Below, piece by piece: positions 16,393 to 50,204 of a stretch of DNA of 64,000 nt. The DNA is taken from the NCBI GenBank assembly GCA_041499475.1, contig JBGQKI010000005.1:17709-81708 (forward strand). Direction: 5' to 3'. Both the position numbers and the translations under genes were made by a program. The notes below the pieces were generated by a model. That model was given only the letters and a program-made list of their open reading frames with translations. It made no database searches and was not told the origin of the DNA. The stretch's first letter is position 1, and each line of letters opens with the position of its first letter. The DNA comes from Thermoplasmata archaeon (lineage in GTDB: Archaea > Thermoplasmatota > DTKX01 > DATEUP01).

Positions 16393-19300
16393 GCCTTCGC
16401 GGGCTTGACCGGCTCGATGATCGGCGGCGCGGGGCGGGCCGCGGCGGCTGCGGCGGCCACACCGGCTCCCAAGGCCACGGCGGCCGCAGCCGGCGGCAGC
16501 GACGGTTTGGCCGCGGGCACGGGCACCTGGACGACTTCGACTTGGACTTCCTCTGCGGCAAGCGCCGATGGGCGCGCGGGCGCCAAGGGGGCTGCAGGGG
16601 CCGCGGCAATGGGCACGGCCTCGTCGTCCTTCTTGCGGCGCCGCATCACGACGATGCCGACAACGCCGGCACCTAGGGCGGCAAGGAGCAGGATAAGCAG
16701 CAGCAGCGGGCTGGAGGCCACCGACGGCGACGCGGGGGCGACCACGCTGGTTTGGATCGTTTTTTGTTCGCCCTGGCCGCTCGGGTCCGTCACGCGGAGC
16801 GTGACTGTGGTCGTCCCGGCTTTGAGGCCCTTGAGGTGCAGCGTCCACACCGGCCCATCGTGGGTGACCGAGACGCCGAGCACTTGGCCGTCGCCCGAGG
16901 TCGCGAAGAAGAAGAGGTCCGGGAAGTTGTCGTCCGGGTCGGCCGCGAAATTGCTGTCCATGACCAGGGTGACCTCCTTGCCCTCGTCCACGCTGAGCGA
17001 GGCCGGGACCTTGCCAGAGGCAAACAGCGGCGGCAGGTCGGCCGCCCGCAGGCGGATCGTGTAATTCTGCCAGACTTGGATGAGACCGTCGGAGAGCTCC
17101 AGTTTCACGTTGAACACGGTGCCGTCGGCGGTGCCCGGCGGGATCTGCCAGTGCACGGTGTGAGCCGAATCCACCGTCATGCCGTCGGGCGCAGCGCCAA
17201 GCGCCACCGTGAGCTGGTCGCCGGTGTCCGGGTCGCTCACGAGCGCCGCGTAGGTGTACGATTGGCCGGGCGTGCCGTTCTGGACCGGGAACGAGTTGAA
17301 GAAGGGCGCGCGGTTCGCGGGGTTTGAAACGCGCGTGACAGTAAGGACGAAGGACGAGTCCGTGTGGGACAGCCCGTCCGAGACGCGGAACGAGATGTTG
17401 TACACGCCGTACGAGCCCGTCGTGGTCGGCCACACAATTACGCCGGCCGAGCCGATCGACATCGCGTTCGGGCCCGACAGGAGCGTCCACGTCCACGTGT
17501 CGCCGGTATCGCTGTCCACGAGCGTTGGCGCCCACTCGTAGTTGTCTCCAGCGTGGATCGTCGTGATCGGCGTCCCCGTGATCGCCGGGACATCGTTGAC
17601 GCGCAGCGGGATGGTGAGGAGCGCCTCGTTGCCCGTCGTGTCGAAAACATGGAGGGTGAGCGAGTAAGTGCCCGGCGCGATGAATTGGAACGAGAATTGC
17701 GCGCTCCGGATCACCTGAGGCGTTCCGTAGGTAAACCGCCATTCGAACACGAGCGCGCCGGGGACGTTGTCCGTCGAGCCTGATGCATTGAGCGTGACCG
17801 TGTCGCCCTCGTTGAACGGCCCGGGGCCGCCGGTGACGCTGATGGCGGGCGGGGTCACATCGAGCGCCCGGAGGGTGTGCTCAAGGGTCGCCATGTTCCC
17901 CGTGCGGTCGTAGACGCTCAGCGTGATGTTGTACGCGCCGGGCTCCGCGGGCGTGAAGTCCGTGACCATCCCAGAGAGCGACCATGGGCCGCCCGGGCCG
18001 TCGATGTTCCAGTCGAAAGTGCCGTTGGTGCCGCCGTCCCAATAGGCGTCGTTGTCGGTAGATCCCGAAGCGTCGAGCGTGATGCGCGCGTCCTCGTTGA
18101 CCGTCGCATTGACGCTGAAGGCGGGGACGGGGTTCGTGGTGTCTTCCACCCAAAGCGTGAAGTTGACCGAGTTCGCGTTGCCCGCGCGGTCCGTCACGAC
18201 GAGGTTGATATTGTACCCGCCCGGGGTGTCGAAGGTGTAGGAGGGGCTCGACCCGGTGAGCGTCACCAGTGCAAGCCACCTCGCCGGGTCGAAGTTCCAC
18301 TGGATGTTGGGGAGCGGGTCGAGCTCGGCAATGAGGTTGCCCGCAAAGGTGTAGGGCACATCTTCGTTGACGAAGAACTCGACAAACGCGGAGAGGTCGG
18401 GCGCGCTGGAGTCGACCCAGAAGTCCCAGGATACGACCGTGACGTGGCCGGCCTCGTCGTACGCCGAAACATTGAGCGTGTAGTGGCCATCGGCGAACGC
18501 GGTCGTGTCGACGATCCAGCTGCCGCTGATGTTGGTGAGGTTGCCGGTGTATGACCAGCCGCCGCCGACCTCGCTTGCCGCGTACACCACCCTTGTCAGG
18601 TTGAAGTCGTCCGAGGCGGTGTAGGTCACCTGCGTCCCGGGGAGCGTGTAGTTCAAAATCGGCGAGGTCCGCATAAGGGAGGGTGCGGAGCCGTCGATGT
18701 AGAATTTCCAGGTGTACGTCGCGCTGTTGTTCAGCGAGTCGTTCGCGAAGAACACGATCGTGTGATTGCCGGGCCCGAGCCCGAGGAAGCCGGTGTCAAT
18801 CGCCCAGGGCAGCGTCGTGTTGAGGAACGGCGTGCCGTCCACGGTGTAGCGCCACGCGAACAGGTGCGGGTCGCTCACATTGGCGCGGATGACCACGCCA
18901 GCCTGGAGCGCCGGGAACCCGAGCGCCGGCACACTCGAGAAGACGGGCGCCGTCGAGTCGAACTCGAAGGAGAAGGTGCGCACCACCGTCGGCACGGCAA
19001 GCGTGGCGTCGAGGATCGTGTTGTCCTTCGCGGTGATCGTGATGTTGTGCCACCCGTCCGCCCACCCCGTCGTATTGATGTCGTGCGGGTAGGTGAGCGC
19101 GCCCGTCACGGTCGTCTTGTCGTCAAAGAAACTCACCGTGTCGAAGAAGTTCGAGACGGAGAAGTTGAGGACCGTGCCCGCGCGGACCAGCGACCTGTCG
19201 GGCGGGCTGGTGAGCGCGACCGCCGGGGGCCACGGGTCCATTAGCGCGTAGTTGTCGTTCTTGCCGCCGCCGATCGGGTAGACGGGCGCGTCCTTGATCC

Positions 19301-22118: not shown

Positions 22119-23415
22119 CTACCGCGGCTCTTGCTCCGTCTCGCCGCCGTCGAGCTCCGACTGGCCCATCTTCCCCATAAGCGACTTCTTTTGGATGTCC
22201 TGCTTGATCTCCTCGCCAAACTCGGACTTCAACTTCATCGTCGCGTACTTGCGCCCAATGAGCGAGTTCAGGGTGTGGTTGAATTCCGCAAGTAGCCCCG
22301 TGATCGCCCGGATCTGGGTCGAGGCCGCGAAGAACTCGAGCTTCGATCCGTCCGCGATCACCGAGGCTCGGATGACGATCTTGTAGCCCTTCACCTTCGT
22401 CTCGCCGTAGAACCACGCCTCGCCGTGGTAGGGCTCCTCGACGACGAAGTCGCGCACGAGGTGCACGTCATGGCCGAGCACCACTTCCTTTGCAAGCGAG
22501 AAGACCTCCGCCCACTTCACACCCTCGGGCAGCTGCGTGACCGTGTAAACCTTCGAGTCGCGCTGGTCGAGCTCGCCCTCGACGAGGCGCTTCAACATCG
22601 CCGTGTTGGCGTGCTCCTTGGTGAAGAAGATCGGGCACACGACTTCGGCCTTGCGCGTCTTCATCGAGATGGAGTGGACCGCACCCTTGGCGTCGCGGTA
22701 CCGCCCGACCCCGTCGATCTGCGACTCGGTGCAGATCTGGGGGTCGAAGTAGTAGGCGACCGAGACCTTCTCGCCCGGGTTGAGGACGCCCAACTGGACT
22801 TCGCTGCCCTGGAACTTGTAGGTGTCCGGCTCGATGTGGTGCAGGCGCAGGACATCTTCGTTGAAGTCGATCGAAACCGTGACCTTCGTGATGACGCTCT
22901 CCGTGTCGTTCTTCACGCCGCACTTGAGGCGCACGAAGCCCTGGAAGAATTCGAGCTCCGAGGGCATCTTGACGACCTTCTCGGTGAGCGCGGCCTTGAC
23001 GTCCTCCCGCGATCGCCCGGCGGTGAGCGCGAAGAAGGGCTCCACGTACTGGTCGATGGCCTCAAGCGAGGTCGTCGAGCCGTCCCAGTCCTCGATGATC
23101 CCGGCGTAGGCGTTTTCGATCGTGCGGATCGTCTCGCGCATCGCCTCCGAGAACTCGTCGGTGGGCTCGCCGTAAATGATCGCCGCCATGAAGATCGAGG
23201 TGCCGCGCTCCATAAGGATCGTGTTCTCGCCAAAGCCGAGGCGGTTCAGTTCCCCTTGCGCCTGGAACGAGTCCTTGATGAAGGACTGGACGGCGGAGAA
23301 CATCGAGGACACGAGTTCGGGGTCCTCGAGCTTGACGTCGCCCGCGTCGAGCTTTGAGAAGACCATTCGCCCGTCGCTGTAGATGATGAGCGCCCCTTCG
23401 ATCACGTAAGTGTCC
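22119..23415 (-). repeat. Conserved cytoplasmic-module coding block, copy 2 of 3
   Basis: Encodes DTYVIEGALIIYSDGRMVFSK...GEAWFYGETKVKGYKIVIRA...LLAEFNHTL...DGGETEQEPR. Confidence 0.85.
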
Positions 23416-26400
23416 TTGCGCTTCTCGGCGCCGGCGGCCAAGGGCGCTTGCTGGATGATCACGCGCTCGGTGGGGGCCTTGGAGGCCGTCTCGAGCGCGC
23501 TGCGCGCAACTTCGCCGGCCGCACGCGAACGGCGCAGCGACACCGCAAGGCCGACGGCGCCCACCGCGCCGCCGGCGAGGAGGAGCAGGAGCATCCAGAG
23601 CGGGAAGCCTGGGGGCGCCGCGCGCTCCTTCACCGCCGCATTCACGGTGACGGTTGCGTTCTCGGACTTGGCGTTCGACGGGTCGCGCGCGACGAGGTTG
23701 AAGGTAACCGTGCCCGTTCCGGTGACGTTGAACACGAGCCATGTGTTCACTCCGTCGAACTCCACCTTCCATCCAAGGATCGTGGGCACCTTTGCCCGGA
23801 CCTGCAAGTCGCTGTCGTTCATCACGAAGGTGAGGTTCGTGTCCACGTCGTCGCGGTCGTGCCAGTAGTCGCTCACCTTGACCCGCACGACGTCGCCCTG
23901 GGTAACATCGTTGATCGTCAAGAGCGCGATGTAATTGGGCACCGCATCGGGCGGGTTCCTGAAGCGGACCGTGAATTCCTGCGTCGACGATTGCTTGCCG
24001 TCGTAGGCCGTGATTGTCACGGGCACCAGGCGCTCGAACACCTCAAGGCCTTCGGGTTGCCACGGGGGCATCCACGAGAGCCGGCCTGTGCCGGAGTCGT
24101 ACGAATAGCCGTCCAGGCCCGAAATCACGATGGTGATGTTGTCGCCGTCCTGGTCGTGGACCTTGATATCGTAGAGGTACGGCGTGCGGACGCGTGCGTC
24201 TGTCGGGGGCTCCGAGTCGAAGACGGGTTTGTGGTTGCCCGCAAGGACTGCAGGGTCGACAACATATACGGTGAACTGCCGCAGCACCGTCGTTAGGCCG
24301 TCGCTGATCCCCACCGTCACGGAGTAGTTCCCGGCAGATCCCGCCCCGGGCGTCCACACGATCGACCCGCCGGCGATGGTCATGCCAGGCGGGCCATCCA
24401 CGATCGAGTAGGTGACCGAGGCGTTCTCCGGGTCGGTTGCATTGGGGGTCCAAACCCACGGGTCAGTCGTGGCCACCTCGGCGGGGGGTTGCGTGCCAAT
24501 CGTGGGGGGTTCGTTGACGGTCAGGTGCGAGACAATCTTGTTCCAGTTGCCCGACGCGTCGGTGACATTGAGTTCGACGGTAACCGTCTCGCCGCGCAGC
24601 CCTACATAACTCGACGAGCGAGCGATGTCCGAGCCGGTGCGCGTCGCATTGTGGAATGTCCACACGTAGGTCCAGTTTGCGACGGTGTAGCGTGGGTCGT
24701 TGTCCGTGACATTTGCCGTGAAGAGCGCCGGGATGAGTACATCGACGACGGTGGGTCCAATCAGCGTGACCTCCGGCGGCGTGATGTCCCTTACATTGAC
24801 GACCACGTACCCCACCGCCGAGTTGTTCTGCGGGTCGGTAACCGTGACCGAGATGTTGTAGAGGCCCGGCGTCGTGAAAATCCAGGTGATATTTGGCCCA
24901 AAGCTCGTGAGGTTTGCCGCCGGCGAGCGCCAGGTCCAGTTGAGCGTGCCGTTGCCGTTGTCGATCGAGGTCTGGTTGATGTTGACGGGCGTGTCCTCGT
25001 CGACGTTATAGAAGGTGACCGGCAGCGAGAGCGACGGCGGCGTAATGTCGAAGATCGTGATGTTGAAGATCGTGCGGTTCGCGTTGCCGGCGGGGTCGGT
25101 CACGACGATGTCGATCGCGTACTGGCCCGGGTCCGTGAACGTCCATGTCGTGTTCTGGCCGTACACGCTCGTAAGGACCTGGAGCCGCGAAGCCGGGTCG
25201 AACTGCCAGGTGTAGTTCAGTTCGCTTGCAAGGGCCGTGAAGTCGCTCGCCGACCCGTTGAAGGCGAACGGCGTGTCCTCGTTTCCGCCGTACGCCATCG
25301 GGAAGGTCGAGGGCAGCTGCGGGGCCGTATTGTCGAGCAGGACGAAGCGCGTAACCTCGTTCTGGTTGCCCGCCGCATCGACGGCGCGGAACACGAAGTC
25401 ATAGTCGAGGTTGTCCTCGCCCTCCGTGGTGAACGTGAAGGTGAAGCGGCCCGAGCCGTCGTCGGTCAAAGCGACCGGCACGCCCCGCAGGAAGAGGACC
25501 GCCGTGTACGTCGAGGTCTCCCCACTCACGCGGAACACAATCGGCACGCCGCGCTTGATGTAATGGACGGCGGACAAAAGCGTGAGCGAATCGATCGCCG
25601 GCGGCGTGCTATCGATCGTGATGTTCGTGCGCAGCTGCACGCCGTTTCCCGCGAAGTCCACCGCCTGGATCACGTAATCGTAGAACCCGTCGGCCCAGCC
25701 CGTCGTGTTGAGCGTGAAGTTCGCCACAAACGGCGAGAACGACGGCGTGCCCGCGACCTTCCACTCCGCGCGCTGCAAGTTCGCTTCGGTGATCGTGAAC
25801 GTCCAAGGCTTCCCTGCCTGGACGGTGGACCCGCCCACCGGGTTTACCGTGATCCGGGGCGCCGTCTTGTCGACGCGGAAGACCGAGGTGAGCTGCTGCG
25901 CATTTCCCGCCGCGTCCGTGGCTGTAATCATGAACGTGTGCAGGCCGTCGGTCAGGTTCGTCGAGTTGTAGTCGTAGCCGGCAAAGAGCGTGAGGGGCGC
26001 CCCGTCGAGCGTGACGTTGACGACGCTGAGGTGGGCGTCGGTCACCGCGAAGTCGATCAGCACGCCGCCGGCAAGCCAAGTGTTGTTCGCCGGCGAGAGC
26101 AACTGCACCTGCGGCGGCGTTGAGTCGACCGTGAAGTTGAAGAGCCGCGCAACCGAGTTGCCGGCAAGGTCGGCCGCGAACAGCGTGATGTTGTAGTTGC
26201 GGTCGAAGTAGCCTGTCGTGTTGATCTGGAACGGCGCCCCCATCACGACGTCAGAGGTGCCGTTGTTGTACGATACGTTTCGCAGGTTGGCGTCGCTGAT
26301 CGTCCATAGGAGCAGCGTCCCGGCCCGGACCACCGACCCGTTCGCGGGGGTTACGAGCGTGATGCTCGGGACCGTCGAGTCGATGACCATACTGAAGTTC

Positions 26401-29400
26401 ATCCAGGCCTCGTTGCCCGCCTGGTCCGTCGCGTGAACCGAGATGGTGTAGTTCGCGTCGGGCCAGCCCGCCGTCGAGATGTCGAAGGGCGCAAGCAGCG
26501 CGAAGGGGCCGCTTCCGTTGGCGTAGGTGACCGCGCTGAGGTTCGTGTCCACCACCGTGAGGTCGATGGTCGTCCCGGCCACGACGACCGCGCCCGCCGT
26601 GGGCGAGTTCAAGGTGATCGTCGGGGGCGTCGAGTCGATGACGATCTGAGCCGCAACTGCCTTCGAATTGCCGGCAAGGTCCGTCGCGCGCACGGTCACG
26701 GTGTAGGTCCCGTCGGCCCACGACGTGGTCACGATGTCGTAGGGCGACGCCAGGGTCGCCGGGGTGCCGCCGTTGTCCCACACCACTGTGTTGAGGTTCG
26801 CGTCAGCCACGGCAAAGTCGAGCGTGGCGCCTGCCTTCACCGTCGCCCCGCTCGCCGGCGAGGCGAGGGTAACGGTGGGCGGCGTCGAATCAACGGTGAA
26901 GCCGTACGTCGCCGACTTCAAATTCCCGGCCAAGTCCGTCGCGTTCAGGCGCAGCGTGTAAACGCCGTCGGACCACCCCGTCGTATTGATGTCGAAGGGC
27001 GAGACAAGCAAAGTCGGCGTCCCGCCGGTCGTCCAGTTGACGGCCGCCAGGTTCGCGTCCGCGACCGAGAGGTCGATGGTGGTCCCGGCCGGGATGTACG
27101 CGTTGTTCGCGGGCGAATTCAGCGTGATCGACGGGGGGTTCGAGTCGACGGTGAAGGTGTAGCTTGAAAACCGGCGGTTGCCCGCAAGGTCGGTCGCGTT
27201 CACGCGGAGTGTATAGACGCCGTCAGCCCAACCCGTCGTGCTGATGTCGAAGGGTGAGGCGAGCGCGGTGGGCGCACCCGCCACCGTCCAATTCACCGTG
27301 TTGAGGTTTGTGTCGCTAACGCTCAGGTCGATCGTCGCGCCCGCCACGATGTAGGACCCGTTCGACGGCGAGTTCAACGCAATCGAAGGCGCCGTCGAAT
27401 CGACGGTGAAGGTGAAGCTCGAGAAGCGCAGGTTCCCCGCCGAGTCGGTCGCGTTCACACGCACCGTGTAGACGCCGTCAGCCCACCCGACCGTGCTGAT
27501 GTCGAAGGGCGTCACGAGCGCCGTGGGCGCTCCGCCCGTCGTCCAGTTCACCCCATTCAGGTTGCCGTCGGTGACCGCCAGGTCGATCGTCGTGCCCGCC
27601 GTGATATACGAATTGTTCGCGGGCGAGTTCAGCACAATCACCGGCGGGCCGCCGTCAACCGTGAAGGTGAAGGTCGAAAAACGCAAATTGCCCGCAAGGT
27701 CCGTCGCGTTCACTCGCACGGTGTACACGCCGTCAGCCCACCCCGTCGTGCTGATGTCGAACGGCGAGGCCAGCGCCGTCGGGGCCCCGCCCGTCGTCCA
27801 ATTCACCGTGTTCAAGTTCGTGTCGGCCACGGAGAGGTCGACCGTCGTGCCCGGCGTGATGAACGAGTTGTTCGTAGGCGAGTTCAGCGTCACCGCAGGC
27901 GGCGTCGAGTCGACCGTGAAGGTGTAGCTCGAGAAGCGCAGGTTCCCTGCAAGGTCGGTCGCGTTCACCCGCACGGTGTAAGCGCCGTCCAACCAGCCGG
28001 TCGTGGAAATGTCCCAGGGGGAAGCAAGGGCCGCCGGAGCGCCACCCGCCGTCCAGTTCGCCGCATTGAGGTTCGCGTCGCCAACAGTCAGATCGATGGT
28101 CGTGCCCGCGGGGATGTAGGAGTTGTTCGCGGGCGAATTCAACGTAATTGCCGGCGGGCTGCCGTCCACCGTGAAGGTGAAACTCGAAAACCGCAAATTG
28201 CCCGCCAGGTCCGTCGCGTTCACCCGCACGGTGTACACGCCATCCGCCCACCCCGTCGTGCTGATGTCGAACGGCGAGGCCAGCGCCGTCGGGGCCCCCG
28301 CCGTCGTCCAATTCACGGTGTTCAGGTTTGCGTCGGAGGCCGCGAGGTCGATCGTCGTCCCCGGCGTGATGTACGAATTGTTGGACGGCGAGTTTAGCGT
28401 GATCGTGGGCGCGATGGAATCGATCTTGACAAAGAGGTTACGGGTCGCCGTGTGGCCGAGCACGTCCGTCGCGTTGACCGTGACCGTGTAGTTGCCGTCC
28501 AACCACCCCGCCGTCGAGACATCGAAGGGGGACGCGAGCGCGTTCGTGGCCGAGCCGTTCGTCCAGGTCGCGCCGGACAGGTGCGCGTCGGTGACCGCGA
28601 AGTCGAGCGTCGTCCCAGGCGAGATGAACGTGTTGTTCGCCGGCGAAACGACGACGATCGAGGGCGCGGTGAAGTCGACCTCGAAGTGGAACAGGCGGAC
28701 CGCGACATTGCCCGAAGTGTCGTTCGCGCGGATCGTTACATTGTAGGACCCGTCCGCCCAACCGGAGGTCGAGATGTCGTATGGCGAACTGAACGCGTTT
28801 GCGCCCGACCCGTTGTCCCAGGTGGCGCCCGCGAGGTTTGAGTCCGACACATCGAAGTCGAGTGTCTGGCCCGGCTCGAATACGGAGTTGTTGAGTGGCG
28901 AGTTCAGCGTGATCGTGGGCGCTGTCGCGTCGATCGTGAAAGTGAACACGCGTGTCGTCGAAAGTCCCCCGGTGTCGTTGGCCAACACCGTGATGTTGAA
29001 CGTCGCGCTGCCCCACCCCGCAGTCGAGATGTCCCAGGGAGCGCTAAGCGGGTTTGGGCCCGAGCCGTTGTCCCAATTCACGCTCGACAGGTGCACGTCC
29101 GAGACCGTGAGGTCGATCGTGGTGCCCACTGCGATGAACGAGTTGTTCGCGGGCGAGTTCAGCGTGATCACGGGCGGGGTCGAGTCAAGTTTGAAGAGGA
29201 ACCTGCTCGAGGCGTTGTTGCCTGCCGTGTCCCACGCCGCGATCGTGATGTTGTAGTCGCCCTCCGCCCACCCCGCCGTCGAGATGTCCCATGGCGCCGT
29301 GAGCGGGTTGAACCCCGACCCGTTGTTCCAGGTTACGTTAGCAACCAGGTGCGCGTCGGCCACGGTGAAATTGAGCTGCGTGCCCACCGCGTAGGTCCCG

Positions 29401-32400
29401 CCCACCGTCGGGCCGTCCGCGGTGATCGTGGGGGACGTCGAGTCGATCACAAACAGGAACCACGGCTGTTGCGTGTAGCCGGTCGAGTCGTTGGCCCATA
29501 TCTGGACGAAGAGGTCTCCGTCAGCAAAGCCCCCCGTCGAGATGTCGAACGGGGTCGTGAGGTTCGTCGTCGTGCCGTTGTTGAGCGCGACCTGCACCGT
29601 GTCGAAGTAGAACGAGATGTTGAAGTCGAGCGTCGCCCCGGCACGGAAGACCGTCCCGTTCGCGGGGCCCACAAGCGTCACATACGGGGGCCAAGGCTCG
29701 CTCAGCGGGTAGCTGTCAACGCGCCCGTAGGGGAGGACGAGCGAGGTGTCGTTGATGCCGTCGGGCCCCGCCGTGCTCTGGGACGCGCCCTTGTAGAGGT
29801 CCGTGTGGGTGGTGTTCGACCAGTAGTTGCCCCCCGACGGGTACCCGTTGTGGAAAGCGTTCGAGGTCCCGATGTCGTACATCGAATTGTTGGCCGTGAA
29901 GAAGTTGTTGTGGTAGAAGAGGTTGAAGTCCGCGCTCGAGGAGAGGTAAATCGTCCAGGTCGAATTGGAGATCGTGCCGTCCTGGAACGTGTTGGAATCG
30001 GCGGAAGACAGGTAGTAGGCGTAGTATTGGAAGCGCAAGGTGTTCCCGCGGACCGTGTTCGCGTTCGAAGAGCTAAGCTCGATGGCGACGCTGCTGGAGT
30101 TGGTGATGTTGTTGTTCTCAACGACGCTCGAATACGTGTAGTAGAGTGTGACCGCGGAGTAGTAGCCGCCGTTGTTCATGCGGTTGCCCGAGACGAGGTC
30201 CCGATTGGCCTGGTCGCCGCTGTTGCCGCCCAAGTAGATTCCATAATAGAGTGAGGAGAGGATGGTGTTCCCCACGATCCGCACATCGTCGGTGGCCTCC
30301 GTGTAGATCCCCATGTACCCCTGGGAATCGAACAGGCTGCCCGTGATGTTCACGTACTGAGACCGGTACTCGAGGTAGACGCCGTAGTAGTTCCGGAAGA
30401 ACGTGGAGTTCGTGATGTTCAGCCGTGTGCTGAGGTAGGCGTAGAGGCCATATTGCGTTGCGTTCGAGAGGTACACCCCACTGATGGTCGCCCGCGTGTT
30501 GTTGGAGAGGTAAATGCCGTAGGCCGTTGCGTTTGCTGTAATGTTGACGACGCGATTGTCGGCCCCCCAAGTCAGGGCCGCCCCCATGTGCGAGCCATTC
30601 GAGGCCGAGTCGCGCGCCGTCGAGTTGAACGCCTTCACGAAGAGGGTGTCGTAGTAGTTTTGGCTCATGAGCGTCGTCGAGCCAAGGTCCATCGAGGTGC
30701 AGTTTACGGCGACGATCCAGCCGGCCGGCCCCCGGAACGTCACGCCCGTCGCGTTGACATAGTAGCGCACCGGGCCCCCGTTGATCGTGTTGTCCGACGT
30801 CCATGTGTGCATGAACAGGGTCTCATCGGTCACGGGGTCGGGCGATGAGAAGATGACGGCGTACGGCTGGGAGCCCGTGAGGTTGAAGATTGAATTGTTG
30901 CTGAAGGTCCAGTAGCGCGACTCCTGGAAGTAGACCCCGTAGTGCGTGTGCGTCACGACGTTGTCCGTGACCGTGATGAAGGATGAGTAGCTCCCGTAGA
31001 GCGCGTAGTCGGTGCCGTTGGTGAACATGTTCCTCGCCACGGTGACGCCCGTGGTGCTGTAGAGGTAGACGCCTTCCTGACCGCTGCCATTGATCAGGTT
31101 GTCCGCGATGAGGCCAGCGCCGACGCTATAGAGGTAGACCGAATGGTAGTTCGTGCGGTGCATCGTGTTGTTCGCGATGCGCCCGACGCCCGTGGAAGGG
31201 CCGCCACCCTGGATATACACGTGGTAATAGTAGTCGTCCGAAAAGCTCGCGTGCTCCGCGCGCGTGCCCGCGTACGCATAGCTGTAGATGCCGTAATAGG
31301 CCCCGCCGTACGATCCCCCGTCGACCCCGTTGTCGAACGCGGTTGCCGCGCTCATGTAGACGTCCTCGGTGAACCCCGAGATGTTCGAAGATACCGTGTT
31401 GTTGCGCGCAAACGCGTCGAACTGGACGCCGGCGTCCGAATAGGGCGTGTCGGGGGTAAAGTTGCCCCCCTGGACCCGGTTCCAGTCGGAATAGGCGAAG
31501 GAGGCGCCGCCCGCGCTGTTCTTCCAGACCGTGAGGTCGGCGAAGGTGTTGTTGTTGCTCAAGTAGCTCACCAAACCCCATTCGTTTTGGCTGAGGTTGG
31601 TGCTTGAGAAGGTGGACCAGTTGGTTGCAAGGAGGAAAATCCCGCCCTGTCCGCGCGAGATGGGGTTCGTGGCCGTAATGTTGAGGCCGCTCGAGTTCGT
31701 CGCGATGATGAGCCCCGCGCTGCCGGTGAACGAGACCCCCGTGGCGTTCACGAAGAACCGGATCGGGTAGCCGTTGGCCGTGTTCGATGTGTCCACATCG
31801 TGCATCCCGTAGCCGATGTCGGTTATGGGCACCGAGAAGACGAGCCGGATCGGGGCCGTCTGGTTCGTGATGTTGTTGCCGCGCAGCGTCCAGAACTTGG
31901 AGTTCTCGATGCGGATGCCCGCGCTCGCGCCCCCCGCATTGGCGATCGTGTTGTCGATAAGGACTCGGTAGTCGGAGAAGTAGCCCTCGATGCCGCCGGA
32001 AACCATCCCGTAGATCCGGTTCCGTGCAACGACCCCGCCTTGGCCGTTGTAGAGATAGATGCCGTAGTCCGCGCCGCTAAGGACATTGTCCTCGATGAGG
32101 CCGCGCCCGCAGAAGTAGCAGTAGATGTCGTAGTAGTAGGCCTGCCCCATCGTGTTGTTCGAGATGCGGTAGTCTTGCGTTTGCGGCGAGCTCGTGTAGC
32201 CAAGGTAGACCTGGTAGTAGTAGCTGAAATTCATCGTGTTGCCCATGACCCAAGGTCCAAAGAATTGGTAAGAGTATACCTCGTAGTAGCTGTCGTTCAG
32301 CGTTGAATTGAGGACCCGCAGGTTGGCGGTGCCATATTGAGCCTGGATGCACGTGCTGAACTGCATGCAGTCCCCGGATTCGAAGGTGAGGTTGTTTGAT

Positions 32401-34790
32401 CCGCTGTCCACGTCGAGCCCGATGTCGGCCCTGTAGGTGTCCGGTCGAAGGGTAGCCCGCAGGACCGTATTCCAGTCGCTTCCCCAGTAATACATCCCGC
32501 CGGCGGTGTTCAACGCAAAACGCGAGTCCGAGACGGTATTGCGCGCACTTAGCCAAGCCTCGAAGCCCCAGGTATTCCCCGTCGCATTCACAGTGCTCAT
32601 GGTCGAATCGTTGACGCCGACGAGCAGGACCCCCGCCTGGTTGCGCGCGAGGGACGACGTCGAGGTGACGGAGAGGTTGCTCGAGTTGTCGACGACGATC
32701 CAGCCGTACGACCCGGTAAAGGTCCCGGAGCTCGCGTTCACGATCCAGAGCGGGGGAAGGCCGTTGAACGTGTTCGAGGCGTCGACGTCGTGGTTTGCCC
32801 AGCGCACCTGGATGGAGGCATCGAGCGAGAGAGCGACCGGTTGGGTCTGGTTGGGGATATTGTTCGAGCGCAGCGTCCAATAGGAGTCGCGATAGAGGAA
32901 AATTCCTTCGTTCGTGGAGTTCGTGAGCGTGTTGCCCGAAACGACCCAATAGTCGGAGTTGTCGCCGCGGATCCCCGAGTCGTGGGACGCGTTGATCACG
33001 TTGTTTTGGATCACGAGCCCGTTGACCGAGGCCCCGTAGATGGCGGTGCTCGAGTCGTTGATGCTGTTGTTCTCGATGAGCGCTCCAGCGTGGCCGTAGA
33101 GGTAGACCGCGTAGTAGTAAGTCGTGTGGTTGAAGGTGTTGTTGTGGATCCATGTGCGGTTGAGCGGCGCGGTGGCCGAGGAGAAGTACCCGTAGACGGC
33201 GTAGTAATAGACCCCGGTGAAGGTTGAGCCGCTGACGACGAAGGAAGCGGCGTAGTTTGCGTAGACGCCGTAATAGGGGCCGTTGACCGACGACCCCGAG
33301 AGGCGGTTGCCTTCGGTGTCCGTGCCGAAGTAGAAGCATGTGTTCCAGCCGGAGCACGACACGTTGGCAAAGGTGTTGAAGTGCGAGCCCGAACCCGCGC
33401 GCACGTCGACCGCGTACCCGTAGAGGGAAGTGTTGCGCCAGGTGCCGCCGTCGAAGAGGTTGTAGGAGGAGGCGTAGAGGTAGATGCCGCCGTACCAGGA
33501 CGGCGCGCGCATGTACGTCTGCGAGAAGTTCGCGAAGGTGTTGTTGTTCGACCGCTCGATGACAAAGTTCCAGCCGTTGCCCGACGAGTTGATGTCCCGG
33601 ATAGTTGAGGAGTTCGTGAAGAGGATGAACACCCCGTCGTCGAGGCCGGAGATCGTCGTGTTCACGGTCACGTTGACGCCGGTCGAGTTGACGACCGCGA
33701 GGAACGACGCGGGGCCCGAGAAGGAGCCGCCCGTCGCGTTCACGATGTACACGATGGGGACGCCGCGGATGGTGTTGCTCGTGTCGATGTCGTGCTGGAA
33801 GTAGGCGAGCACGGCCGGCGAGTTGTAGTAGAAGTACAGGGGCGAGCTCGTCGTGTTGATCAGCACGTTGCGCCAGCGCCAGCCGGTGGAGAGGCCGCCG
33901 AAGTCGAACCCTCCGTAGGAGCCTGCCTCAAGCGTGACATTGTCGAGGCTGCAGGAGTGGGTGTCATAGGAGTAAAAGGCCCAGTTCGCCGTGGCGCGGA
34001 TGGAGCCATTGTCAAACGAGCTATCCGAGAGCGTGCTGTAAATGTACACGCCGCCGTAGTTGCCTGTGGTGTTGATCCGGAAATTGGAGAAGTGCAAGTC
34101 CGCGGAGTTCTGGAGCCAAATGGCGGCCCGGCCGGTGCTCGTGAGCGTGAGGTTGGAGGCCCACGCCCCGCTGACCAGGTAGAAGTAGAGGCCGTCGTAG
34201 CTCGTGGTCGTGGTCACCGAGATCGACCACATGTGGATGTTGTAGAGGGGGTTGCCCACAAAGTCAAATCCGCCGTAGCCGCAGCTCGACGCGTCGATGT
34301 CGTGCATGATCCAGTCGTGGGCCTGGCGCAGGTAGATGCAGTCATAGTTGACTTGGGTGACCGTGATGTTGTCCAAGGTGCCGTTGTGGTAGCCGGCGTC
34401 GATGTACACTCCGTAGATGCCGTGCGTCAAGGTGAGGTTCTGCAAGACGACGTGGTGCCCCTGCACGGTGAAGACGGAGTTGCCAAGCGACTGGCGGTCG
34501 ATGACGACCCCGCTTCGGCTTTCGCCCTGGACCGTCACATAATTCTTGGACAGGGTGACGTTCTCGTGGTACGTCCCGTTATGGATGATCACGGTGTCAT
34601 TCGCCGCCGCGTCGTAGAGCCCCTTTTGCACCGTCATCCATTGGTGCAGTGTCGCGTTGTCCGAAGAGTACAAGGCGTCGACGTTGATCGTCGTCGCCGT
34701 CGCGCCCAATGAGAGGAAGGCGAGCGCACCAAAGGCAAGCAACGCCCCGCCGGCCAGGAGAATCAGCGGCCGGCCCCGCTCTGCCGACAT
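22119..34790 (-). CDS. Giant type-I membrane surface protein 2 (4 beta-helix super-modules + 17 Ig-like repeats + stalk + TM + conserved cytoplasmic module)
   Basis: The ORF is open from 34877 (TTG). ATG 34790 (MSAERGRPLILLAGGALLAFGALAFLSLGATA, preceded by GGGGGGAAGCGAAGG) is the likelier start, giving about 4223 aa. The beta-helix region spans nt ~29700-34700 with four recurrences of a DxDxSNT(x)NG(x)P(I/V)..(V/I)NA(T/S)G.(S/T)F(T/S)G motif. 17 x 85-aa repeats span nt 25322-29690. Then come 3 PKD-like + 2 cadherin-like + 1 Ig-like domain. The TM helix is FPLWMLLLLLAGGAVGAVGLAVSL followed by RRSR (nt ~23538-23608). The cytoplasmic module spans 22119-23415. Confidence 0.9.
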   Translation of the reverse strand: MSAERGRPLILLAGGALLAFGALAFLSLGATATTINVDALYSSDNATLHQWMTVQKGLYDAAANDTVIIHNGTYHENVTLSKNYVTVQGESRSGVVIDRQSLGNSVFTVQGHHVVLQNLTLTHGIYGVYIDAGYHNGTLDNITVTQVNYDCIYLRQAHDWIMHDIDASSCGYGGFDFVGNPLYNIHMWSISVTTTTSYDGLYFYLVSGAWASNLTLTSTGRAAIWLQNSADLHFSNFRINTTGNYGGVYIYSTLSDSSFDNGSIRATANWAFYSYDTHSCSLDNVTLEAGSYGGFDFGGLSTGWRWRNVLINTTSSPLYFYYNSPAVLAYFQHDIDTSNTIRGVPIVYIVNATGGSFSGPASFLAVVNSTGVNVTVNTTISGLDDGVFILFTNSSTIRDINSSGNGWNFVIERSNNNTFANFSQTYMRAPSWYGGIYLYASSYNLFDGGTWRNTSLYGYAVDVRAGSGSHFNTFANVSCSGWNTCFYFGTDTEGNRLSGSSVNGPYYGVYANYAASFVVSGSTFTGVYYYAVYGYFSSATAPLNRTWIHNNTFNHTTYYYAVYLYGHAGALIENNSINDSSTAIYGASVNGLVIQNNVINASHDSGIRGDNSDYWVVSGNTLTNSTNEGIFLYRDSYWTLRSNNIPNQTQPVALSLDASIQVRWANHDVDASNTFNGLPPLWIVNASSGTFTGSYGWIVVDNSSNLSVTSTSSLARNQAGVLLVGVNDSTMSTVNATGNTWGFEAWLSARNTVSDSRFALNTAGGMYYWGSDWNTVLRATLRPDTYRADIGLDVDSGSNNLTFESGDCMQFSTCIQAQYGTANLRVLNSTLNDSYYEVYSYQFFGPWVMGNTMNFSYYYQVYLGYTSSPQTQDYRISNNTMGQAYYYDIYCYFCGRGLIEDNVLSGADYGIYLYNGQGGVVARNRIYGMVSGGIEGYFSDYRVLIDNTIANAGGASAGIRIENSKFWTLRGNNITNQTAPIRLVFSVPITDIGYGMHDVDTSNTANGYPIRFFVNATGVSFTGSAGLIIATNSSGLNITATNPISRGQGGIFLLATNWSTFSSTNLSQNEWGLVSYLSNNNTFADLTVWKNSAGGASFAYSDWNRVQGGNFTPDTPYSDAGVQFDAFARNNTVSSNISGFTEDVYMSAATAFDNGVDGGSYGGAYYGIYSYAYAGTRAEHASFSDDYYYHVYIQGGGPSTGVGRIANNTMHRTNYHSVYLYSVGAGLIADNLINGSGQEGVYLYSTTGVTVARNMFTNGTDYALYGSYSSFITVTDNVVTHTHYGVYFQESRYWTFSNNSIFNLTGSQPYAVIFSSPDPVTDETLFMHTWTSDNTINGGPVRYYVNATGVTFRGPAGWIVAVNCTSMDLGSTTLMSQNYYDTLFVKAFNSTARDSASNGSHMGAALTWGADNRVVNITANATAYGIYLSNNTRATISGVYLSNATQYGLYAYLSTRLNITNSTFFRNYYGVYLEYRSQYVNITGSLFDSQGYMGIYTEATDDVRIVGNTILSSLYYGIYLGGNSGDQANRDLVSGNRMNNGGYYSAVTLYYTYSSVVENNNITNSSSVAIELSSSNANTVRGNTLRFQYYAYYLSSADSNTFQDGTISNSTWTIYLSSSADFNLFYHNNFFTANNSMYDIGTSNAFHNGYPSGGNYWSNTTHTDLYKGASQSTAGPDGINDTSLVLPYGRVDSYPLSEPWPPYVTLVGPANGTVFRAGATLDFNISFYFDTVQVALNNGTTTNLTTPFDISTGGFADGDLFVQIWANDSTGYTQQPWFLFVIDSTSPTITADGPTVGGTYAVGTQLNFTVADAHLVANVTWNNGSGFNPLTAPWDISTAGWAEGDYNITIAAWDTAGNNASSRFLFKLDSTPPVITLNSPANNSFIAVGTTIDLTVSDVHLSSVNWDNGSGPNPLSAPWDISTAGWGSATFNITVLANDTGGLSTTRVFTFTIDATAPTITLNSPLNNSVFEPGQTLDFDVSDSNLAGATWDNGSGANAFSSPYDISTSGWADGSYNVTIRANDTSGNVAVRLFHFEVDFTAPSIVVVSPANNTFISPGTTLDFAVTDAHLSGATWTNGSATNALASPFDVSTAGWLDGNYTVTVNATDVLGHTATRNLFVKIDSIAPTITLNSPSNNSYITPGTTIDLAASDANLNTVNWTTAGAPTALASPFDISTTGWADGVYTVRVNATDLAGNLRFSSFTFTVDGSPPAITLNSPANNSYIPAGTTIDLTVGDANLNAANWTAGGAPAALASPWDISTTGWLDGAYTVRVNATDLAGNLRFSSYTFTVDSTPPAVTLNSPTNNSFITPGTTVDLSVADTNLNTVNWTTGGAPTALASPFDISTTGWADGVYTVRVNATDLAGNLRFSTFTFTVDGGPPVIVLNSPANNSYITAGTTIDLAVTDGNLNGVNWTTGGAPTALVTPFDISTVGWADGVYTVRVNATDSAGNLRFSSFTFTVDSTAPSIALNSPSNGSYIVAGATIDLSVSDTNLNTVNWTVAGAPTALASPFDISTTGWADGVYTLRVNATDLAGNRRFSSYTFTVDSNPPSITLNSPANNAYIPAGTTIDLSVADANLAAVNWTTGGTPTLLVSPFDINTTGWSDGVYTLRLNATDLAGNLKSATYGFTVDSTPPTVTLASPASGATVKAGATLDFAVADANLNTVVWDNGGTPATLASPYDIVTTSWADGTYTVTVRATDLAGNSKAVAAQIVIDSTPPTITLNSPTAGAVVVAGTTIDLTVVDTNLSAVTYANGSGPFALLAPFDISTAGWPDANYTISVHATDQAGNEAWMNFSMVIDSTVPSITLVTPANGSVVRAGTLLLWTISDANLRNVSYNNGTSDVVMGAPFQINTTGYFDRNYNITLFAADLAGNSVARLFNFTVDSTPPQVQLLSPANNTWLAGGVLIDFAVTDAHLSVVNVTLDGAPLTLFAGYDYNSTNLTDGLHTFMITATDAAGNAQQLTSVFRVDKTAPRITVNPVGGSTVQAGKPWTFTITEANLQRAEWKVAGTPSFSPFVANFTLNTTGWADGFYDYVIQAVDFAGNGVQLRTNITIDSTPPAIDSLTLLSAVHYIKRGVPIVFRVSGETSTYTAVLFLRGVPVALTDDGSGRFTFTFTTEGEDNLDYDFVFRAVDAAGNQNEVTRFVLLDNTAPQLPSTFPMAYGGNEDTPFAFNGSASDFTALASELNYTWQFDPASRLQVLTSVYGQNTTWTFTDPGQYAIDIVVTDPAGNANRTIFNITIFDITPPSLSLPVTFYNVDEDTPVNINQTSIDNGNGTLNWTWRSPAANLTSFGPNITWIFTTPGLYNISVTVTDPQNNSAVGYVVVNVRDITPPEVTLIGPTVVDVLIPALFTANVTDNDPRYTVANWTYVWTFHNATRTGSDIARSSSYVGLRGETVTVELNVTDASGNWNKIVSHLTVNEPPTIGTQPPAEVATTDPWVWTPNATDPENASVTYSIVDGPPGMTIAGGSIVWTPGAGSAGNYSVTVGISDGLTTVLRQFTVYVVDPAVLAGNHKPVFDSEPPTDARVRTPYLYDIKVHDQDGDNITIVISGLDGYSYDSGTGRLSWMPPWQPEGLEVFERLVPVTITAYDGKQSSTQEFTVRFRNPPDAVPNYIALLTINDVTQGDVVRVKVSDYWHDRDDVDTNLTFVMNDSDLQVRAKVPTILGWKVEFDGVNTWLVFNVTGTGTVTFNLVARDPSNAKSENATVTVNAAVKERAAPPGFPLWMLLLLLAGGAVGAVGLAVSLRRSRAAGEVARSALETASKAPTERVIIQQAPLAAGAEKRKDTYVIEGALIIYSDGRMVFSKLDAGDVKLEDPELVSSMFSAVQSFIKDSFQAQGELNRLGFGENTILMERGTSIFMAAIIYGEPTDEFSEAMRETIRTIENAYAGIIEDWDGSTTSLEAIDQYVEPFFALTAGRSREDVKAALTEKVVKMPSELEFFQGFVRLKCGVKNDTESVITKVTVSIDFNEDVLRLHHIEPDTYKFQGSEVQLGVLNPGEKVSVAYYFDPQICTESQIDGVGRYRDAKGAVHSISMKTRKAEVVCPIFFTKEHANTAMLKRLVEGELDQRDSKVYTVTQLPEGVKWAEVFSLAKEVVLGHDVHLVRDFVVEEPYHGEAWFYGETKVKGYKIVIRASVIADGSKLEFFAASTQIRAITGLLAEFNHTLNSLIGRKYATMKLKSEFGEEIKQDIQKKSLMGKMGQSELDGGETEQEPR
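25322..29690 (-). repeat. Tandem array of 17 x ~255-bp (85-aa) Ig-like coding repeats (gene 2)
   Basis: The unit consensus is (T/S)ITLNSPANNSxIxxGTTIDLxVxDxNLxxVNWTxGGAPTALASPFDISTTGWADGVYTVRVNATDLAGNLRFSxFTFTVD(S/G)xPP. I counted 17 D-x-x-x-P boundaries between PWPPYVTLVGP and LLDNTAPQLPS. The central copies (~26885-28415) are near-identical. Confidence 0.85.
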
Positions 34791-34883
34791 CCTTCGCTTC
34801 CCCCCGGTGAGCACAGCCTGGATCGCGAGGCAATATGGGGAATTGCCTGGCCATCCAGAATATGGCGGCCACCCCAAGCACGT

Positions 34884-38000: not shown

Positions 38001-41000
38001 ACGGGAGCGGGAAGTTTACCGAAGCGCCGGCGGAGTCAACGATGTCGTATGAAGCGCCGCCGCAGTTGGAGGTGTTGCGCAGGAACAAGTAGTCGTTGTC
38101 GCGGCTCAGGTCGCCCACGAACGCGACCGATGTGTCCTCATCAACGGTCGCATTCACAAGCAGGGAAACCGTGGGCGGCGTGGCGTCCGCGATGTGCACG
38201 CTGTAAGTGCGCGCGTCGGAGTTGCCGGCAAGGTCGGTGATCGCAAGGGTGTACGCGTAATCGCCTGGGTCGGCCCACCTATAGGTCGGCATCGAACCGG
38301 TGCGCTGGTCGAGCGCAAGCGGGCCCGCGCGCGTGGAGAACGTCCACAAGAAACTCCCGGGGGGCAAGGGATTCGGGCCGTCCGAGGCCGACGACGCGTC
38401 GAGCGTGATGTCGCGGTCCTCGTCGTATGTCTGGTTGAGGGGCAGGGCGCTCACGGAGGGCAAGCTCGGTTTGCTGCTGTCGATCACGATCGTGATGTTC
38501 GTGTCCACGCGGTGACCGGCGGGGTCGCGCACGATGAAGTGCACGAGGTACCTGCCGTCGGGCCATGATGTGGTGTCGACCGAACGCGGCATCCCCGTGC
38601 CGTTCGCCGCAAGGAGGGCCCCGCCGTCGCGCTGCCAGGTAACGTTGATCGCGTTGTTGTCCGTGGCCGTAATGTTGAGGAGCGTGCCGCGGGGCACATG
38701 GGCCCCGTCCGCGGGGTCGGTCACCGCGATTACCGGGTCGAGCGAGTCGATTGCAAAGGCGAAGTCGCGCGTGGTCAGGTGGCCCGCGCGGTCGAACGCC
38801 TCCACATGGAGCGTGTGCGAGGACTCGCCAAGGCCCGCCGTGGAGAGCGAATAGTTCTGGGCGGAGCCGTTCACGCCGGCCGCCGCGTCGATGTAGGCGT
38901 GCGACCAAAGCAGGTTCAGGTCGAAGAGCGTCCCGCTGAGCACCGTCCCGTTCGAGAAGTAGGTGTTCTCCCAAGCCACGGCATTGACCACGGGCGCCAC
39001 GCTGTCGAGCGTGAAGCTGAACCAGCGCGTGACGGAGTTGCCCGCCCGGTCGGTCGCGACCACCGTGAAGGTGTACGCGCCGTCGGGCCAGGCAGACACG
39101 TTAATCGCAAAGGGCGCCGCAAGGGGCGTGGGTGCCGCGCCGGTTGTCCAGGTCGCGGTGGAAAGGGCGGCTTCGATGACGTCAAATTGCACCGTCGTGA
39201 AATTGCGCTGGTCAAAGTAGCTGTTGTTGGTCTGCGTGGTCGCGTTGAGCTGGATGATGGGCTTCGTCGAGTCCACCCAGAAGCGGTAGTAACGCAGGCG
39301 CACGTTGCCGGCCAAGTCGCTTGCCCGGACGGTGATGTTGTACGAGTTGTCTGCCCAGCCGGCCGTGGGGATCTCCCACTGCGTTGCAAATGCCTGCGGG
39401 CCAGCGCCGTTTGCTTCCCAAGAAGTCTGGTCGAGGTTCGCGTCGGAGATCGTGAGGTTGACGACCGTGCCGGCGACGATGTACGTGTCATTCGTCGGCC
39501 CGTTGAGGTTTAACGTGGGCAGCGTCGAGTCGATCGTGAAGTGGAAAAAGCGCGTCTTCACGTTAGAGGCGAGGTCGGCCGCCGACACCGTGAGATTGCG
39601 CGGGCCGTCCGGCCAGCCCCCCGTCGAGATGTTCCAGTTGGTCGCAAACGGCTGGGCGCCCGATCCGTCGTCCCAGGTCGCGGTGTTGAGGTTCGTGTCG
39701 CTGATCGTGAAGTTGATGAGGACGCCCGCCTCGAACACGGAGTTGTTCGAGGGCGCGAGCAGGTTCAGCACGGGGAAGATGGAGTCGATCGTGAAATGGA
39801 AGATGCGCGTCTTCACGTTGGAAGCGAGGTCGTCTGCGGTGACCGTGATGTTGACCGGGCCCTCCGCCCAACCGGTCGTCGAGATGGTCCACTGTGCGGC
39901 AAAGCTCTGGGCGCCGGTGCCGTCGTCCCACGTGGCAGTGTCGAGGTTCGTGTCCGTGATGCTGAGGTTCAGCAGCGTGCCGGACGGAATGTAAGAGTTG
40001 TTCGTGGGCGAGCTCAGCGTCACCGACGGAACGGCTGAGTCGATCGTGAGGTGGAAGGTCCGCGAGCGCAGGTTGCCCGCCAAATCGGTCGCGTCGACGC
40101 TGATGTTGATGGGGCCGTCCGCCCAGCCGACCGTCGAGATATTCCACTGGGTGGCGAACGTCGTCCCGCCCCCGCCGTTGTCCCACGTGGCGGTGTTGAG
40201 GTTCGTGTCGCTGATCGAGAAATTGAGCTGCACGCCGGGGCGGATGAACGAGTTGTTCGAGGGCGAGAGCAAGGAGACCGTCGGCAGCACCGAATCGAAA
40301 GTGAAATGGAACACGCGGATGCGCTGGAGCGACACTGCGTCGGTGGCGGTCACGGTGATGTTCGTCGGTCCGTCGGGCCAGCCTGAAGTCACGATATCGA
40401 AGGGCGAAGCCAGCGCGTTCGGGCCGGAGCCGTTGTCCCAGGTGACCGTGAGCGTGGTCAGGTCCGTGACCAAAAGGTCAAGCGTGGCGCCCGCGCGGAT
40501 GTAGGAGTTGTTCGAGGGCGAGAGCAAAGTGACCGTGGGGGGGGTCGTGTCGAAGGTGTACCGCAGGACGACGGTGCGCACGTTGCCCGCAAGGTCGGTG
40601 GCGATCACCGTGACGTTGTAGACGCCGTCGGCCCATCCGCTCGTGCTGATGTCAAAGGGCGACGCGAGCGTGTTGGCCCCGCTCCCGTTGTTCCAGGTAG
40701 CGCCCTGGAAATTCGCGTCGGTCACCGTTAGGTCGATCGTGGTGCCCGCGAGGATGATGGAGTTGTTCGAGGGCGTCACCACGCTGATCGTCGGGGGCGT
40801 CGCATCGAAGACGAAGTGGAAGGTGGCGGCGCGCGTGTTGCCGGCCCGGTCGGTGGCCGTGACGGTCACATTCTTGGGGCCCTCCGGCCAGCCGACGGTC
40901 GACACATCAAAGGGCGAGGGCAGCGCGTTGGCTCCCGACCCGTTGTTCCACGACACGGTGTTCAGGTAGAGGTCGGAGGCGTCGAAGTCCAAGTCCGTCC

Positions 41001-49908: not shown

Positions 49909-49920
49909 ATAAGGGTTCCC
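49905..49920 (-). promoter_or_regulatory. BRE/TATA-like box for giant gene 3
   Basis: The minus strand reads GGGAACCCTTATATGGGGCA. It is similar to GAAACCCTTATGAAGG (441-456) and, on the plus strand, AGAACCCTTAAATC (10045-10058). Its centre is about 44 nt upstream of GTG 49866. Confidence 0.4.
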
Positions 49921-50170
49921 GAAGGCCGCCGCGAAGCGGGTACTGTGGCTCGGCCGACGAAAAGCGCCGTGTCCAACGCGTTTTCCTATGGAAGCGCTCC
50001 CGTTTTTCGCGCGGGCCGGTAAGGAGTTGATCCGACTTCGCCCTGCCTTCACCCGGTCACCTCGCGAAAGGCCGATCGGGACTCTCGCGGCCCCGCGCGC
50101 CTTGCCCGCCGCGCAACTGCGGCGCACCGCTTGGCTTGAATTCTGCGGCCGCGCCGCGCCCCCCTTGAGT

Positions 50171-50182
50171 AAACTCTTAAGA
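50171..50182 (+). promoter_or_regulatory. TATA-like box for the sdh operon (leaderless geometry)
   Basis: AAACTCTTAAGA is centred about 28 nt upstream of GTG 50205. Confidence 0.4.
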
Positions 50183-50204
50183 CGGTCGAGAACGCTCCAA
50201 AGGC

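Follow-up and report, generated by a model that had tools for sequence, protein, structure and literature searches.

Does a long array of similar repeats in a single giant archaeal gene record a recent expansion, whose copy number may have been misjudged by the assembly, or an old structure that selection has kept alike? This question is raised by a 64,000-nt stretch of DNA (hereafter the window) from contig JBGQKI010000005.1 (positions 17,709 to 81,708 of the forward strand; GenBank assembly GCA_041499475.1) of an uncultured soil Thermoplasmata archaeon. The array lies in gene A, a minus-strand open reading frame (ORF) at 22119-34877 of the window, which in the ORF list and its translation begins with a TTG and is 4252 codons long. 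Its probable start, an ATG at 34790, gives a protein of 4223 aa (P0004), a database entry with 100% identity to the gene A product; a search for encoding contigs found no other contig that encodes this exact protein. We propose, with a probability of about 0.75, that the array is the old immunoglobulin (Ig)-domain stalk of a giant, adhesin-like archaeal surface protein and that the core of this stalk is turning over.

Cut at the recurring xDSTxP motif, the array (residues 1726-3172 of P0001) is a run of 17 consecutive units, 85 aa each except for two of 86 aa. A hidden Markov model (HMM) built from the units gave E<1e-13 for 16 units and a marginal E of 0.18 for unit 17, and the same model found 27 units in paralogue B and 3 in paralogue C, the two neighbours of gene A. 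An initial annotation of this DNA had described 17 tandem 85-aa units, and this count was borne out, with the bounds given in Table 1. Its 53-nt exact repeat is also real: the two copies lie at 27736-27788 and 28246-28298, an offset of 510 nt, where shuffled sequences are expected to contain none. The 34-aa string that it reported verbatim in two units begins at residues 2198 and 2368 and recurs with 2-4 changes in three further units. The progressive divergence of the outer units was likewise recovered, as identity to the core declines toward both ends of the array. However, the central six units were also said to be nearly identical, and this they are not. Core units 6-11 (26895-28424) share 68-84% identity in protein and 67-86% in DNA, whereas the outer units share 21-53% in protein. 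Tandem Repeats Finder, run on the array, reported only 5.7 copies of period 255 with 73% matches (26934-28394), and no 60-nt window compared at multiples of 255 nt reached 90% identity, save one patch at offset 510.

The likeness of the core could mean recent ancestry, and the silent sites bear on this directly. Among the six core units, pairwise synonymous divergence (dS, by the Nei-Gojobori method) was 0.40-1.72, and the ratio of nonsynonymous to synonymous divergence (dN/dS) was 0.09-0.30. At codons for the same amino acid, the same codon was used in 57% of cases between core units, 61% between outer units, 59% between core and outer units and 55% between the core and paralogue B. Silent sites in the core have thus already reached the baseline set by codon usage, and the likeness of the core proteins reflects purifying selection and not youth; recent ancestry as its cause was rejected everywhere except in one tract, which units 6 and 8 have in common. 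Over codons 37-85 these two units differ at 9 of 147 nt (94% identity) between flanks that are about 76% identical. Only 5 of the 47 same-residue codons in the tract differ silently (dS 0.205), compared with 20 and 17 silent differences over the same codons in pairs 6/10 and 8/10 (dS 1.05 and 0.86, respectively). Codons 1-36 of units 6 and 8 have a dS of 0.76. Given 36 mismatches in 255 nt, an uninterrupted run of 53 nt has a permutation p of 0.005. Because of this mosaic of a low-dS stretch next to diverged codons, the tract of about 147 nt is probably the product of gene conversion.

The divergence of the units also decides how far the assembly can be trusted. The three giant genes (15102-50253) contain no repeated k-mer of 54 nt or longer, and within gene A no exact repeat of at least 28 nt occurs besides the 53-mer. 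Each unit junction is therefore unique for ordinary reads and for a de Bruijn graph with k of at least 55, and short-read collapse is unlikely. Furthermore, the array sits in the middle of a contig of 110,926 nt with its frame and period intact. Judged by these sequence features, the assembly risk appears low, and the warning of the initial annotation that the copy number might be collapsed or inflated carries little weight. For another species of the genus, two independent assemblies (ENA protein P0008 and JGI contig L002) agree over the full 17-unit array. Metagenome and genome scans with a unique segment from the head end of the gene found no contig of the same species, with the proviso that the metagenome scan may omit records of this genome or of a very near one; the only other species found was that of L002 and L003 (64% identity). 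Since selection keeps the core domains alike while their silent sites have drifted to saturation, the count of 17 is trustworthy. The repeat is thus alarming in the protein sequence yet safe in the DNA, and the count can be used for annotation.

In the L002 orthologue (L002:2467-15267), a perfect 108-nt tandem duplication was seen just after the Ig array, at L002:12110-12330 (gene nt 9644-9864). It forms a 113-nt exact repeat, adds 36 residues and is without counterpart in the otherwise near-identical P0008; its source is either length variation among strains or an artefact of the assembly.

What has happened to the array over longer times was examined in five species of the genus. Orthologues of the gene A head were found in three of four other genomes of the same genus and in none of 36 others sampled in the phylum. 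Between the landmarks PWPP and PMAYGG there are 17 units here, 15 in P0005 (contig L001), 19 in P0006, and 17 in both P0007 and P0008 (contig L002). In a positional best-hit table, each of units 1-5 and of the last six units was matched best, in every species, by the unit in the corresponding place, whereas this did not hold for the core units. In the unit trees the flanking units formed position-specific clades with high support, and gene A units 6-11 formed a gene-specific clade. In the five-species tree the core units made up one clade, within which sister pairs of units i and i+2 were specific to a species (O7_07+09, O6_09+11, O6_10+12, O8_07+09 and O8_08+10). In four of the five species, two units at lag 2 made up the most similar pair, and in the present genome the three pairs with the lowest dS (6/8, 8/10 and 7/9) are all at lag 2. 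Copy-number differences were confined to the core and came in steps of two units. The lag-2 pairs, their low dS and the copy numbers differing by two together suggest a two-unit turnover, apparently by unequal recombination in 510-nt steps with the frame fixed.

These data speak against a static array, in which the core would simply be under stronger purifying selection, with no duplication, loss or conversion since the genus arose. Such an array would fit the silent sites of the core, which are as diverged as those of the outer units, and the dN/dS of 0.09-0.30. However, the species carry 4, 6, 6-7 and 8 core units between conserved flanks, the i/i+2 sister pairs have starred support, the core units of P0007 form a species-specific clade, and the tract of units 6 and 8 shows 5 silent differences, compared with 17-20 in comparable pairs. 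We therefore regard a static core as most unlikely.

The opposite extreme is a core that expanded or was homogenised recently, with a copy number polymorphic among present strains and an assembled count of 17 that may be collapsed or inflated. The 53-nt repeat and the 94%-identical tract at offset 510 would be natural products of such a process, as would the differences in copy number among the species of the genus. Its weakness lies in the core itself, with DNA identity of 67-86%, dS of 0.4-1.7 and silent sites at the baseline, as well as in the near absence of long exact repeats (none of at least 54 nt, one of at least 28 nt) and in the regular 85-aa frame within a contig of 110 kb. Moreover, a count of exactly 17 is found in three of the five species, at a protein identity of 53-63%. 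This explanation is very unlikely. The duplication and homogenisation proposed by the initial annotation hold over interspecies time, as the gene-specific core clade, the core-confined range of 15-19 units and the i/i+2 pairs attest, and what fails is the word recent. Against the nearest sequenced species (L001), the head has a dS of 0.38 and the part after the array one of 0.72; that of the lag-2 pairs within the present array is 0.62-0.70. As these values are similar, the last change in copy number dates from about the time of the split from the nearest sequenced species. The unit 6/8 tract (dS 0.2) is the only trace younger than that split.

The nature of the unit was approached through family models and structure prediction. 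Pfam Big_13 (PF19077, a bacterial Ig-like domain of the E-set clan) matched the whole protein with 234.8 bits over 10 stretches; unit 8 alone scored 27.3 bits and passed the gathering cut-off of 27 bits, and the edge units 1 and 17 were below it. An AlphaFold2 model of units 7-9, computed from an alignment of 35 unit triples from genes A and B, had a mean predicted local distance difference test score of 96.9 and consisted of three seven-stranded beta-sandwiches with xDSTxP as the linker. In Foldseek searches, the best three-domain superpositions were on the bacterial Ig-like (BIg) domains 50-52 of Salmonella SiiE (2yn5), with template-modelling (TM) scores of 0.55-0.61, followed by the neck of the grappling-hook protein GhpA and by the extender repeats of LapA-type and MpIBP adhesins. 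The probability was 1.00 for the SiiE BIg, LapA, MpIBP and GhpA domains, which places the units in the Ig-like beta-sandwich fold. The relationship to SiiE was also visible in sequence: a profile of the units found 2yn3 with an E-value of 1e-7, aligning ATD-AGN on ASD-AAGN and xDSTxP on IDST. Only the profile reached SiiE, as a phmmer search of the Protein Data Bank with units 7-9 alone gave no match.

In SiiE, the rod is rigidified by a type I Ca2+ site at every interface between domains, where the end of domain n-1 contributes one Asp and domain n another two (PMC5466336). In the aligned unit triples D2 and D72 are invariant and D31 is kept in at least 90%, so that the three Asp of the SiiE site are present at the sequence level. 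As these residues are conserved, the junctions of the gene A stalk are predicted to be stiffened by Ca2+ in a similar manner.

It might be argued that the units are not a passive spacer at all and that each binds a ligand, as a multivalent lectin-like or matrix-binding module, the core being kept alike through a repeated ligand. The strong conservation of the core protein despite saturated silent sites would be expected in that case, and glycan-binding surface proteins such as B. ovatus SGBP-B were among the Foldseek matches, with poor TM scores of 0.19-0.28. Nevertheless, the best relatives in both structure and sequence are extender domains (SiiE, LapA, MpIBP and GhpA). The conserved residues are those of the linker, the Ca2+-site Asp and the core hydrophobics, with no obvious pocket, and the dense N-glycosylation sequons would coat the surface. 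A binding role of the units is quite unlikely.

The setting of the array in the protein fits a stalk. From the N-terminus, the gene A product opens with a hydrophobic signal segment and continues with NosD/Beta_helix modules over about 1,650 aa; after the 17-unit array come PKD and He_PIG domains, a transmembrane helix and a tail of about 470 aa. The head matched Pfam NosD (236 bits) and Beta_helix (218 bits) and the NCBIfam model para_beta_helix, and family scans of the protein gave no match to an RTX or type I secretion system (T1SS) family. Sequons N-X-S/T number 73 in the head, where 34 were expected, and 57 in the array, where shuffles gave 25.6 +/- 4; in the array they recur at unit positions 15, 38 and 69. 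Altogether 154 lie outside the membrane (23601-34790), about twice the shuffled expectation per region, and 2 in the tail (22122-23540), so that their density drops from about 4 to 0.43 per 100 aa past the transmembrane helix. This excess outside and near-lack in the tail favour a type-I orientation and heavy N-glycosylation of the exterior. The ectodomain is also almost without Lys, Glu and Cys; Lys and Glu together make up 1-2% of the head and the Ig array, 4.6% of the PKD region and 17% of the tail. The contrast in sequons and in Lys and Glu is a sharp compositional mark of the topology.

We therefore picture the 17 Ig-like beta-sandwiches, joined by short xDSTxP linkers, as the likely extender of an N-glycosylated, single-pass surface protein. 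Three conserved Asp per unit would probably stiffen the junctions through Ca2+, and the rod would hold several beta-helix modules, probably glycan-binding, off the membrane. An Ig-like domain is about 3-4.5 nm long. By this measure the 17-unit rod would reach about 55-75 nm, and the stalk would accordingly be shorter in the 3-unit paralogue and longer in the 27-unit one. The first five and last six units would remain orthologous while the central 4-8 units gain and lose copies by unequal recombination, two units (510 nt) apparently being exchanged at a time, and occasional gene conversion would patch the core.

Several points weigh against this proposal. The label adhesin is given by analogy, and Ca2+ binding by the units is a reasonable inference drawn from alignment with SiiE. 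The two-unit step is derived from five species with three distinct copy numbers, and in P0005 the best pair is at lag 1. A collapsed assembly would hide any further copies that were truly identical, as a recent expansion would allow, although no feature of the sequence hints at such copies. Finally, contig L003, from a metagenome-assembled genome in the NCBI database ('Thermoplasmatota archaeon isolate SMAG_U8344'), ends inside the core, at about unit 9.7, a break that a recent expansion could also explain and that hints that assemblies of this gene family do sometimes fragment there.

The end of L003 is at L003:11105, corresponding to gene nt 7308. This contig belongs to the same species as L002, with 6 differences in 7.3 kb, and it breaks in the core despite the lack of a long exact repeat there.

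Table 1. Positions in the window of the features of gene A and of the related arrays in its neighbours
Feature	Position	Strand	Basis
Gene A, giant type-I membrane surface protein	22119..34877	-	ORF and translation, P0004 match, dN/dS
Signal peptide or N-terminal hydrophobic segment, then several right-handed beta-helix (NosD / Beta_helix) modules; distal head	29703..34790	-	Pfam, NCBIfam, sequons
17 tandem 85-aa Ig-like (Big_13-type) domains; stalk	25362..29702	-	Unit table, HMM, Pfam, AlphaFold, Foldseek
Core units 6-11; sole part repetitive in DNA and sole part with interspecies copy-number difference	26895..28424	-	Tandem Repeats Finder, identity matrices, unit trees, positional best-hit table
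Unit 8, codons 37-85; one arm of the youngest similarity tract (probable gene conversion), with the 53-nt repeat at 27736-27788	27660..27806	-	9 differences in 147 nt, dS
Unit 6, codons 37-85; other arm of the youngest similarity tract, with the 53-nt repeat at 28246-28298	28170..28316	-	9 differences in 147 nt, dS
Membrane-proximal PKD and He_PIG/Big_9 Ig-like domains	23601..25361	-	Pfam PKD, PKD_4, He_PIG, Big_9, residues 3199-3537
Single transmembrane helix LWMLLLLLAGGAVGAVGLAV, residues 3760-3779, then RRSR	23541..23600	-	Read from translation
Cytoplasmic tail, conserved, common to paralogues B and C	22122..23540	-	Near-identical tails in P0001, P0002, P0003
Paralogue B array, 27 units of the same 85-aa domain	38497..45414 (gene 35032-50253)	-	HMM domain table, unit list
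Paralogue C array, 3 units of the same domain	18444..19241 (gene 15102-21881)	-	HMM domain table, unit list

Gene A stands head-to-tail between its paralogues C (2259 aa) and B (5073 aa) (Table 1). The G+C content of the region is 60-66%, and many spurious plus-strand ORFs result from it. Those over the array (e.g. 24489-26123, 26433-27167 and 29091-30254) are high-GC artefacts; they were rejected because the minus-strand frame is kept with a dN/dS of about 0.2 in orthologues (0.18-0.20 for gene A). The three-gene tandem is not conserved across the genus, because L001 is without paralogue B at this site: upstream of the gene A orthologue (L001:1-3043) it has two small genes on the opposite strand, and the C orthologue is still found downstream.

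The units of paralogue B have a median identity of 46% in amino acids, and its array is older and more diverged than that of gene A. Short exact repeats occur there at whole-unit offsets, at 39680-39707 and 40190-40217 (510 nt, two units) and at 42410-42437 and 43940-43967 (1530 nt, six units), and its orthologue P0010 has 28 units detected by the HMM, compared with 27 here. From these repeats and counts, the array of paralogue B also appears to turn over.

The 3' ends of the three paralogues, which encode the cytoplasmic tails, are joined by exact matches of 28-38 nt (15364-15401 with 35414-35451, 22393-22428 with 35420-35455, and 15731-15765 with 35781-35815), and in DNA the tails are far more conserved than the ectodomains. 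This conservation possibly comes from conversion between the paralogues. The cytoplasmic tail is the more unusual part of these giant genes. One could go further and see in the central block a length-tuning module that changes only in two-domain steps, an archaeal 'periscope' coupled to outside-in signalling or trafficking. The paralogues with 3, 17 and 27 domains would then hold out different beta-helix heads at three fixed distances, every head being wired to the same adaptor-like tail. We consider this extension unlikely.

Among known systems, the BIg rod of SiiE (PDB 2yn3 and 2yn5; PMC6272769, PMC5466336) is alike in being a tandem of Ig-like beta-sandwiches of about 85-100 aa that accounts for the bulk of a giant surface protein's length. 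The two arrays have in common the linker motifs ASD/ATD-AGN and IDST, together with the three Asp that form the type I site between domains. However, SiiE is a bacterial protein secreted by a T1SS and has no membrane anchor, whereas the gene A protein is archaeal, has an N-terminal signal segment, a C-terminal transmembrane helix and a large cytoplasmic tail, carries about 4 N-glycosylation sequons per 100 aa and is only about 20% identical to SiiE. With a membrane anchor and a cytoplasmic tail and without a secretion signal, it is not an RTX/T1SS adhesin.

The resemblance to adhesin-like proteins (ALPs) from Methanobrevibacter smithii and from Methanosphaera stadtmanae (PMC11532034) lies in the combination of right-handed beta-helix, repeated Ig-like 'archaeal Big' domains (ABD) and a membrane anchor. 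The gene A protein has this type of architecture (NosD/Beta_helix, Big_13 and a transmembrane helix), which is an architectural resemblance only. ALPs mostly have an N-terminal transmembrane anchor, are far smaller and are without a conserved cytoplasmic module; their ABD domains reportedly lie outside Pfam, whereas the gene A units score as Big_13.

Periscope Proteins (SasG/Aap, Rib, Sgo_0707 SHIRT, Esp and CdrA) have highly identical repeats and vary in length between strains (PMC8201768). As in gene A, an N-terminal binding region is held out by a rod-like stalk built of folded domains in tandem, and the number of domains varies between relatives, so that the reach is tunable. The gene A repeats, in contrast, have 67-86% DNA identity, their variation was seen only between species, and the protein is archaeal and not bacterial; as its repeats are not highly identical, it falls outside the definition. 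BAP and BLP of Acinetobacter baumannii (PMC4647330) also consist of arrays of Ig-like modules (80-110 aa) that are variable in type and number between conserved ends. However, BAP varies among strains of one species and often defeats short-read assembly, whereas the units of gene A are diverged enough to assemble uniquely.

Functionally and structurally, the gene A array is an extender like those of SiiE, LapA/MpIBP and BAP. Type-I membrane proteins of cell-wall-less-type archaea thus employ extender domains of the SiiE type, in which the Asp of the Ca2+ site are conserved in sequence. The array offers a clean archaeal example of how an Ig-domain stalk evolves, with fixed orthologous edges and a recombining centre.

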